A DNA stretch of 64,000 nt from a bacterium (GTDB lineage: Bacteria > Patescibacteriota > Microgenomatia > UBA1400 > UBA12108), in contig JAJYKS010000001.1 in the NCBI GenBank assembly GCA_021788365.1, positions 3,887-67,886 of the forward strand. Reading direction: 5' to 3'. The number at the start of each line of letters is the position of its first letter. Positions within the stretch are counted from its first letter, which is position 1. The translations under genes were made by a program, and so were the position numbers. This document shows, one piece after another, positions 45,801-46,400 of the stretch. Under the pieces are notes generated by a model, which was not told the origin of the DNA, did no database searches, and saw only the letters and a program-made list of their open reading frames with translations.

Positions 45801-46400
45801 TTATTATTGTTAGCTCATGGTCGCCCATGAGATCGGACTATATCTTAGTGTTTTCACACTTCTCTGCGTTTAGTCTCTGAGGATACTAGACCTTTAGCTT
45901 GAGACAAAATTCTTCAAATTGTTGCCTTTTAGCTGTAACGAGTGGATATTTCTTGAAAAACGGAATTATGATCTTTTTAAGATCTTCTTGCCGTCTCACG
46001 CAATATCGCAATATGTTTTCGCGATGATTATCGTGTCGTCTGTTTATATAGATGTGTCCACACTGAAAGAATTTTTCGATCCTTTCGAGTGAGATTCGAC
46101 TTTTCTCTCCTTGGGTTATTACGAACTCAAAAAGAGTTTGATAACCACTCGAGCAAGTTATATTTTTAAACTTGCTCACAGAGAAACAGCCTTCGCCATC
46201 TACAAAACCAACTATCCACCATGGATCTAATCTTTCCTGCTGATTTGCTGCACTTTCTGCATTATCACTATGTGTCATTACAACCATAGTAGCAAAAGAT
46301 ACTCAGCTCTTCCAGCATATAGCAAAGTTTTTCTGATCTTTATTTTCTGCACAGATCAGAGAGGTTTGACTACCTCACTATGGCAACGATTTGTCATCCT
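45801..46400 (-). mobile_element. Group I intron in 23S domain IV (helix 69-71 region, E. coli about 1917-1925) carrying a homing-endonuclease gene
   Basis: The exon sequence ...GTAACTATAACTGTTCTATGGT is separated by about 600 nt from GCGAAATTCCTTGTCGGGTAAGTTCCGACC. E. coli has CCTAAGGTAGCGAAATTCC contiguous. A LAGLIDADG ORF lies inside, in the same orientation as the rRNA. Confidence 0.65.
45886..46287 (-). CDS. LAGLIDADG homing endonuclease (single-motif, I-CreI-like)
   Basis: 133 aa. 'WWIVGFVDGEGCFSV' LAGLIDADG motif plus the typical basic C-terminal region. Embedded in the 23S intron. Confidence 0.85.
   Translation of the reverse strand: MVVMTHSDNAESAANQQERLDPWWIVGFVDGEGCFSVSKFKNITCSSGYQTLFEFVITQGEKSRISLERIEKFFQCGHIYINRRHDNHRENILRYCVRRQEDLKKIIIPFFKKYPLVTAKRQQFEEFCLKLKV

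Follow-up and report, generated by a model that had tools for sequence, protein, structure and literature searches.

Within the window, by which we mean the whole 64,000-nucleotide (nt) stretch of bacterial DNA that was analysed, a ribosomal RNA (rRNA) operon lies on the reverse strand. Its 23S gene is split by a 601-nt insertion that carries an open reading frame (ORF) for a LAGLIDADG protein, and this insertion, a group I intron, is the subject of the present report. The genes of the operon were located by covariance-model search of the window, and all coordinates are given in window numbering.

51156..49666, reverse strand: 16S rRNA gene
48381..44559, reverse strand: 23S (large subunit, LSU) rRNA gene, 2247.8 bits; 3823 nt as compared with 2925 positions in the model
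46402..45802, reverse strand: group I intron of 601 nt at site L1931, assigned from the MAFFT junction, 77 loci with the same junction, a covarying core and an Intron_gpI match of 40.6 bits
45801..45793, reverse strand: start of the 3′ exon, AGCGAAAUU, from A1932 onward; its AGCGA is a strand of P10
44402..44286, reverse strand: 5S rRNA gene

In the cmscan alignment, 603 nt replace two model positions within the conserved sequence ...CUAUAACUGUUCU[..]AUAAGCGAAAUUCC (also written CUAUAACUGUUCU[...]AUAAGCGAAAUUCCUUGUCGGGUAAGUUCCGACC), and alignment to E. coli rrlH with MAFFT places a 601-nt insertion immediately 3′ of E. coli position 1931. The conserved 23S block composed of CCUAAGGU and AGCGAAAUUCC is interrupted exactly after U1931, at the site termed L1931 between U1931 and A1932. 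The original prediction had recognized that a conserved block of 23S domain IV is split by about 600 nt, and both alignments agree with it. The insert it placed at 45801-46400 is real, with boundaries that are now set at 46402..45802. It had also located the site at about 1917-1925 and had noted a coincidence with the hotspot of I-PpoI and I-CeuI; here the MAFFT alignment corrects it, as L1931 is a separately known intron site. The I-CeuI intron resides at L1923 and the I-PpoI intron at L1925.

Scans of genome and metagenome contigs yielded 108 related loci, of which 77 include both exon junctions and represent 62 unique sequences. The pairing percentages and numbers of extra pair types reported below are counts over these 62 unique relatives. 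The identical junction, ...CUAUGGU-intron-AGCGAA..., is accompanied by a homologous ORF in 77 of the 108 loci, and this recurrence of insertion and ORF at one position is far beyond chance. Labels on the related loci include Gottesman-, Ames-, Levyi- and Berkelbacteria, Saccharibacteria and 'Patescibacteria group'. The contigs of six loci (L008, L012, L014, L016, L025 and L027) are labelled Gammaproteobacteria or Bathyarchaeota, yet they carry the same intron family and the 23S exon variant CUGUUCUAUGGU that is typical of the Candidate Phyla Radiation (CPR); these look like mis-binned CPR rRNA contigs.

Helix map of the intron

The insert is a bona fide, complete group I intron in which P1 to P10 are all assignable. 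Its elements, together with the ORF, are as follows (all on the reverse strand).

46409..46403: 5′ strand of P1, CUAUGGU, the last 7 nt of the 5′ exon, ending in U1931
46389..46378: internal guide UCGUU-GCCAUAG, in which the P10 strand (46389..46385) abuts the 3′ strand of P1 (46384..46378)
46376..46332: P2 (GAGGU/ACCUC) and P2.1 (UCUGAUCU/AGAUCAGA), peripheral hairpins, both in the minimum free energy (MFE) fold
46327..46322: 5′ strand of P3, CUUUGC, with its partner GCAGAG at 45867..45862
46317..46238: P4-P5 domain, in which P4, UGCUGG (46317..46312)/UCAGCA (46243..46238), surrounds P5, P5a and P5b (46307..46247)
46287..45886: ORF of 133 amino acids (aa), single-domain LAGLIDADG_1, in the rRNA orientation; contains IVGFVDGEGCF
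45892..45885: 3′ strand of P6, GGUCUAGU, with its partner AUUAGAUC at 46231..46224; closes the loop that holds the body of the ORF
45877..45835: 3′ half of the catalytic core, comprising P7, J7/3, the 3′ strand of P3, P8 and J8/7
45877..45872: 5′ strand of P7, G(A)GACU, with the guanosine-binding G at 45875
45867..45862: 3′ strand of P3, GCAGAG, preceded by J7/3 (AAA)
45860..45847: P8, AGUGU-GAAA-ACACU, followed by J8/7 (AAGAUAU)
45839..45835: 3′ strand of P7, AGUCC, in which C45836 pairs with G45875
45831..45814: P9 hairpin, CUCAUGG-GCGA-CCAUGAG, in the MFE fold
45813..45802: 3′ tail CUAACAAUAAUA, ending in A45802, where relatives carry the terminal guanosine (omega-G)

The strongest comparative support comes from the helices that hold the exons and build the core. 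P1 (CUAUGGU/GCCAUAG, 7 base pairs [bp]) is 99% paired, and the U·G wobble at the splice site, whose U is U1931, is present in 61 of 61 relatives. Exon and guide change in concert, with U-A replaced by A-U in 13 sequences and by G-C in 2, as exemplified by CUAAGGU with GCCUUAG and CGAUGGU with GCCAUCG. P10, in which UCGUU (46389..46385) pairs with AGCGA of the 3′ exon (45801..45797), is 90% paired. P3 is paired in all sequences, with 14 extra pair types and 106 cells that show double changes; P7 is likewise 100% paired, with compensatory swaps among G-C, A-U and C-G; and P4 is 100% paired and almost invariant. Compensatory changes are thus seen in P1, P3 and P7. When the 3′ partner was slid by 1-2 columns as a control, pairing was 30-40% for P3, 7-50% for P1, P3, P4 and P7, 7-53% once P9 was added to these, and 7-60% for the P3-P7 helices.

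The remaining helices are more variable. P5 is 98% paired with 8 extra pair types, P5a 89% with 22, P9 91% with 20, and P6 78% with 17, including the compensatory variants CUAGAUCC/GGUCUAG, CUCGAUCC/AAUCGAG, UUGGAUCC/GAUCCAA and CUAAACCC/GGGUUUAG. P2.1 has 31 extra pair types, and both P2 and P2.1 are missing from some relatives, such as L009. The GAAA-capped P8 hairpin is only 50% paired in the MAFFT alignment, which aligns this element poorly, and its support was therefore taken from the MFE fold. An all-against-all covariation scan gave mostly noise in the coding region and was usable only for P1, P3, P5, P5a, P6 and P9.

When the P6 loop is deleted, folding the intron to its MFE without constraints recovers P1, P2, P2.1, P4, P5, P6, P7 with P8 nested inside it, and P9 (z = -4.07; none of 200 shuffled sequences folds equally well). 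P3 is absent from this fold because it forms a pseudoknot with P7. Within P7, the guanosine-binding pair G45875-C45836 lies next to the bulged A45876, and AGACUAAA is identical to the Intron_gpI consensus; the signatures AGACUAAACG and AAGAUAUAGUC (P7 and J8/7) also fit that consensus. Binding of guanosine by this pair was shown for the Tetrahymena intron by Michel et al. (as summarised in another source). The original prediction of a group I intron in 23S domain IV, which had proposed that P1-P9 be mapped and had treated failure to fold a P3-P7 core as grounds to abandon the idea, is upheld by this map: all helices are assigned, and the core folds in the MFE calculation and covaries.

Some other assignments were considered and rejected. 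With CUAGUA as the 3′ strand of P4, P5 formed by AGCUGAG/CUC(A)AGCU and the ORF in L5, the pairing of P5 is not conserved in relatives; CUAG is instead part of the 3′ strand of P6, where it covaries with UUAG/CUCG/UUGG. A 5′ splice site after ...ACUGUU (about L1924), with a 3′ exon beginning CUAACAAU..., leaves a P1 of only 4 bp and a mature sequence that is not conserved, and the 7-bp P1 with P10 was preferred.

The endonuclease and its gene

The ORF and the ribozyme share sequence to a considerable extent. The first AUG is located in the P5b stem and a second (46278..46276) in the P5b hairpin loop, from which a 130-aa form would be made, as in several homologues. From there the frame passes through the 3′ strands of P5a and P5, the 3′ strand of P4 and the 5′ strand of P6, such that roughly the first 30 codons double as core strands. 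The P6 loop is occupied by the LAGLIDADG domain proper, and the 3′ strand of P6 contains the stop codon UAG (45886..45888). An invariant 'NQQ' near the N-terminus is encoded by the 3′ strand of P4, UCAGCA (46238..46243). The overlap explains why many homologues are exactly 133 aa long and have a conserved N-terminus outside the Pfam domain; because 'NQQ' and the stop codon are themselves ribozyme strands, part of the conservation of the protein and its fixed length are constraints of the ribozyme. In five introns from other samples that are 99.0% identical to the window copy (hereafter the sisters), the codon at this place is UAA, so that termination and the P6 pair are both preserved. Two synonymous changes, one replacement and this stop-to-stop change are all that separate the ORF from those of the sisters, and the ORF is thus not decaying.

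The P5b hairpin at the start of the ORF (46268..46290, reverse strand; CUACUAUGG...CACAUAGUGA) closely copies the P1 helix (46378..46409; exon CUAUGGU and guide GCCAUAGUGA). In relatives this hairpin reads CUAUGGU...ACCAUAGUGA, and in some relatives with the exon CUAAGGU the 3′ strand of P5b is CCUUAG, like their own guide. The likeness could reflect an alternative P1, a relic of invasion by the endonuclease gene at a target-like site, or chance.

A 133-aa ORF with a single LAGLIDADG motif in the rRNA orientation had been noted in the original prediction, and one match to Pfam LAGLIDADG_1 (PF00961; 81.1 bits, cutoff 23.1) confirms it, covering residues 25-128 and profile positions 1-99 of 102. 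The catalytic aspartate, D30 of IVGFVDGEG, is invariant in 33 homologues and aligns with the D of GFVDGDG in I-CreI. At E ≤ 1e-5 the protein has 5079 homologues, many of them about 70% identical and exactly 133 aa long. The highest totals in the Protein Data Bank (PDB) belong to two-domain fungal enzymes (I-PanMI, I-SmaMI, I-OnuI and others), each of which matches twice. The best single-domain chain is 5gkk, I-TnaI (74.6 bits with phmmer, 97 bits with the profile, 41% identity), followed by halves of the I-OnuI group. Judged by its name and its chain length (170 aa, compared with 162 aa for the ORFs of Thermotoga L1931 introns), I-TnaI is probably the Thermotoga L1931 enzyme.

An AlphaFold2 model of the monomer has a mean predicted local distance difference test (pLDDT) score of 73 and a predicted template modelling (pTM) score of 0.67, with a confident β-β-α-β-β-α core out of the α-β-β-α-β-β-α fold expected of a LAGLIDADG_1 enzyme. 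This core superposes on I-TnaI, I-OnuI and I-PanMI with root-mean-square deviations of 1.2-2.4 Å over about 100 columns, and I-TnaI is the top Foldseek match of the model. Residues 1-30, including the motif helix, have pLDDT below 50; as modelled, this plausibly reflects the role of the helix in forming the dimer interface.

The protein had been described as I-CreI-like, which holds for its architecture only and not for its sequence. Like I-CreI, which is encoded in a Chlamydomonas chloroplast LSU intron, it has a single motif, GFVDG(D/E)G, is presumed to be a homodimer and belongs to an rRNA intron. The two differ in that identity is 25% over 56 residues around the motif (pairwise E = 3e-5), and I-TnaI is nearer. 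The I-CreI intron site is L2593. The 60 highest-ranking PDB matches to the window protein include no chain named I-CreI, I-MsoI or I-CeuI (for I-CreI and I-MsoI, the weakest of these have E = 5.4e-9 with the single sequence and 1.8e-12 with the profile).

A related endonuclease gene, with 40-42% identity, was observed at two loci, L026 (about 2881..3692) and L029 (about 1536..2725), in metagenome-assembled genomes labelled Actinomycetota (Microthrixaceae, Acidimicrobiia). The ribozyme core there is similar (..GCUGUAUGCUGGAAG..), but the intron follows U1923 (exon ACGGU, intron C...AUG, exon CCUAAGGUAGCG), which is the I-CeuI site. One lineage of intron and endonuclease thus appears to be present at two sites, L1923 and L1931, with 8 nt between them.

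Terminal adenosine and competing readings

P1 and P10 fix the junction between U1931 and A1932, and the last intron base is therefore A45802. The original prediction had suggested that omega-G be located in the map; the base found there is A, of which it made no mention. An independent assembly in ENA reproduces this A in the window copy. Of the 77 relatives, 63 end in G and 14 in A, and none ends in C or U; for the 62 unique sequences the counts are 50 with G and 12 with A. On a neighbour-joining tree for which the terminal columns had been removed, parsimony gives at least eight G-to-A changes, with G ancestral. The five sisters end in ...CUAACACAAAAUG (...CAAAAUG), that is, with omega-G, and the window copy differs from them at 7 positions, 3 of which fall within the final 7 nt, in a tail that is hypervariable in general. 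In ENA the population with terminal A corresponds to ERZ27233565, and the sisters to ERZ27237538, ERZ27237541, ERZ27237554, ERZ27237563 and ERZ27237587. Since sisters with 99% identity carry G, the change to A is very recent in the lineage of the window copy, and the G at the homologous position in 63 of 77 relatives and in the five sisters marks the element as a group I intron by descent. Terminal A (omega-A) persists through about 20% divergence, with intact ORFs, in L014/L027 and in the clade of L003 and L010, which argues that it is tolerated.

A second group I intron is present in the same 23S gene at 45251..44958 (reverse strand; 294 nt, without an ORF), after U2504 (about 2504 by MAFFT). 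Its P1 is CCUCGAU/GUCGAGG with U·G at the splice site, it ends ...UUUUUG before GUCGGCUC with a canonical omega-G, and it matches Intron_gpI with 47.8 bits (E = 3.6e-11), just under the gathering score of 50.

The guanosine-binding pair of P7 is G-C in all 50 unique introns with omega-G and in 8 with omega-A, including the window copy. In four unique omega-A introns, all of them relatives and not the window copy, the pair is flipped to C-G, a state never found with omega-G. The flip is carried by L003, L010, L070, L079, L106, L117-L121, L123 and L124, and every readable 3′ end in this set is A; P7 reads C(U)CACU/AGUGG, or G(A)CACU/AGUGC in L106. Among further copies, L117-L121 and L123/L124 combine C-G with omega-A, and L122 and L126-L128 combine G-C with omega-G. 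The flipped copies constitute one clade with three diverged sub-lineages (L003; L117-L121; L010/L070/L079/L123/L124) and the unrelated L106, which amounts to two independent origins.

Group I ribozymes that use adenosine have reportedly been engineered, in work attributed to Michel et al. 1989 and to Been and Perrotta 1991, and these studies are said to have used an A-U binding pair. As in L003, L010, L117 and L106, the identity of the P7 binding pair is tied to the terminal nucleotide in the engineered ribozymes; they differ from the natural relatives, which have C-G, and from the window intron, which keeps G-C. Judged from sequence, it is a rather improbable but conceivable reading that the C-G/omega-A relatives represent a natural shift of nucleoside specificity from guanosine towards adenosine, possibly with adenosine or ATP as cofactor. 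With two origins only, the association could be due to chance or hitch-hiking. One review states that such a change of the binding site 'is not observed in nature'. If the switch were real, the window copy, with omega-A and an unflipped G-C, would be the first, tolerated step on that path. The natural series from omega-G, through omega-A with G-C, to omega-A with C-G could show how strict the need for omega-G is and whether the nucleoside-binding site was ever retuned in nature.

Taking these features together, we consider it very probable that a mobile group I intron occupies 46402..45802, separating U1931 from A1932 in a CPR-type 23S gene. Following established group I biology, exogenous guanosine bound at G45875-C45836 would attack the phosphate after U1931, and the freed 3′-OH of the exon, held by P1 and P10, would attack the 3′ splice site before A1932. 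The ligated product would be CUAUGGU-AGCGAAAUU, that is, the canonical junction CUAUGGUAGCGAA, and the rRNA would be restored. With a terminal A, the second step is predicted to be slower or to depend on positioning by P10/P9.0. The homodimeric protein would cut intron-less L1931 alleles at the target CTGTTCTATGGT/AGCGAAATTCC, and repair would copy the intron in (homing); the candidate L1931 cleavage target is CTGTTCTATGGTAGCGAAATTCC, with CGGTCCTAAGGTAGCGAAATTCC as its E. coli-type counterpart.

Several observations weigh against this reading. A scan with the Rfam model Intron_gpI (RF00028), which the original prediction had proposed, does yield a match (40.6 bits, E = 8.5e-9), but one that covers only 46019..45814, the 3′ third of the insert, and stays below the gathering score of 50; the Rfam alignment also sets P3-P6 within the ORF, where many positions fail to pair. 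Group I introns almost universally end in omega-G, and this one ends in A; in the Tetrahymena intron, changing omega-G to A reportedly impairs exon ligation strongly. By eye, no Shine-Dalgarno-like sequence is evident upstream of either candidate start codon. The host, moreover, appears to be a CPR/Patescibacteria-type bacterium by an assignment that rests on the labels of related loci and not on a phylogeny of the window. With regard to Rfam, the score falls below threshold because the model cannot span an ORF of about 340 nt in the P6 loop, and the gathering score is a detection threshold, not a structural criterion. We rejected the Rfam pairings within the ORF (UUCAA/UUGAA etc.) in favour of the fully paired upstream P3 (CUUUGC/GCAGAG) and P4 (UGCUGG/UCAGCA). 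In a scan of a single relative, L009, only another, downstream intron scored above threshold.

That low score is also what could be cited for viewing the insert as a non-intron expansion segment, or as an intervening sequence (IVS) processed by RNase III, that happens to hold a LAGLIDADG gene, and non-intron insertions do also occur in CPR 23S genes (PMC11270868). This view is scarcely tenable, as all core helices, including the exon-guide pairing, are present and covary, the junction is exactly that of an L1931 intron, and the P7 and J8/7 consensus sequences are in place; the covariation of P1, P3 and P7 effectively refutes it. It is also very unlikely that the 3′ splice site lies at another G, either G45814, with 12 additional nt retained in the rRNA, or the G at the second base of the 3′ exon, with loss of A1932-G1933. 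No other G residues lie closer to the expected site on its two sides, and omega-G mutants of the Tetrahymena intron can reportedly activate nearby cryptic sites. Yet G45814 is the paired last base of P9, a helix with 91% conservation; A1932 is exactly where P10 (UCGUU/AGCGA) positions the exon; the tail that follows P9 is of similar length in relatives and has G as its final base; and either choice alters a universally conserved block of the rRNA.

A more serious alternative, though still an unlikely one, is that the window carries a splicing-impaired allele in which the first step at U1931 occurs and the exons are not ligated for want of omega-G. The 23S rRNA would then exist in two pieces (1-1931 and a 3′ part with an intron tail trimmed by RNase), or the intron would be kept in the mature ribosome. 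The combination of a terminal A with the canonical G-specific binding pair is what such an allele would look like, and the change is so recent, given the G of the 99% sisters, that selection may not yet have acted. Bacterial 23S rRNA fragmented by removal of an IVS without ligation is known from the literature, and the Simkania L1931 intron is reportedly unspliced, to go by the title of Everett et al. 1999. Against this, omega-A with G-C persists through about 20% divergence with intact ORFs and cores, not only in L014/L027 but also in L057/L058 and L002/L032, and such persistence fits poorly with an rRNA gene that is present in single copy and crippled. The restriction of the terminal position to purines suggests that A is functional there, and the title of Raghavan et al. 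2007 reportedly speaks of a self-splicing Coxiella 23S intron that lacks omega-G.

Known relatives and genomic surroundings

Introns of this kind are well documented in the CPR. In a survey of 348 CPR 23S genes, 82% had insertions and 45% of the insertions were group I introns (Tsurumaki et al. 2024, PMC11270868), and LAGLIDADG_1 ORFs in these genes concentrate at 1917, 1931, 1952, 2593, 2604 and 2657 (PMC11270868). The remark in the original prediction that rRNA introns are a CPR hallmark accords with this record, which includes rRNA group I introns with single-domain LAGLIDADG genes. One enzyme, I-ShaI from site 23IS7, has been purified, cuts insertion-site DNA and forms homodimers (PMC11270868); by our reading of the parallel lists in that report, 23IS7 is position 1931. 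I-ShaI shares with the window protein the host group, the class of rRNA site, group-I-like flanks and a single LAGLIDADG_1 domain. It differs in being about 173 aa long and 42% identical to I-CeuI (PMC11270868), a name borne by none of the 60 top-ranking PDB chains for the window protein. The two may represent different LAGLIDADG_1 lineages at the same site, set apart here through likeness to I-CeuI. The suggestion of a new cleavage specificity is not sustained, given the 5079 homologues and a known hot spot at 1931 with a characterised enzyme.

Outside the CPR, L1931 introns with single-motif LAGLIDADG genes are found in Simkania, Thermotoga and Synechococcus (Haugen et al. 2007, PMC1995217). 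They have in common with the window intron the insertion after U1931 and the single motif, and in one Synechococcus LSU intron the ORF reads from a peripheral loop on into the core of the ribozyme (PMC1995217), as it does here. The window intron and its protein are smaller, at 601 nt and 130-133 aa compared with 654-700 nt and 143-167 aa (PMC1995217). P2 is described as missing from the cyanobacterial L1931 introns (PMC1995217), whereas the window intron has both P2 and P2.1, and its terminal base is A. The Coxiella 23S introns are likewise bacterial group I introns in domain IV, one of them with a 157-aa LAGLIDADG ORF (PMC1995217), and differ in their insertion sites, 1917 and 1951. Sequence records for these comparison introns are U68460 (Simkania), AJ556784-6 (Thermotoga), DQ421379/80 (Synechococcus) and AE016828 (Coxiella).

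The window intron is an ordinary further member of a well-populated and documented CPR intron family, and omega-A is its single noteworthy feature. In itself the intron matters little, its kind being documented in the CPR and 1931 being on record as a hot spot whose enzyme has been characterised biochemically. What could matter is the terminal A, and the pattern to which it led in the relatives is of more interest. The value of the analysis for annotation lies in the exact intron boundaries, which are needed to rebuild the mature 23S rRNA, in a helix map that shows the conserved 'NQQ' and the stop codon to be ribozyme strands, and in an account of why the Rfam threshold misses introns that bear ORFs.

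The surroundings of the 23S gene have some features of their own. The spacer between the 16S and 23S genes (48560..49451) is unusual in that a protein gene and an inverted tRNA separate the two, and a large ORF lies directly downstream of the 5S gene.

48981..49451, reverse strand: AhpC/TSA peroxiredoxin-type ORF (Pfam, 137 bits)
48895..48970, forward strand: tRNA-Ile(GAU), in the 16S-23S spacer on the strand opposite to the operon
48560..48633, reverse strand: tRNA-Ala(UGC), in the 16S-23S spacer
39266..44182, reverse strand: ORF of 1638 aa with Big_13, Big_3_3 and fibronectin type III domains and a C-terminal hydrophobic stretch

The 1638-aa ORF probably encodes a large surface protein.

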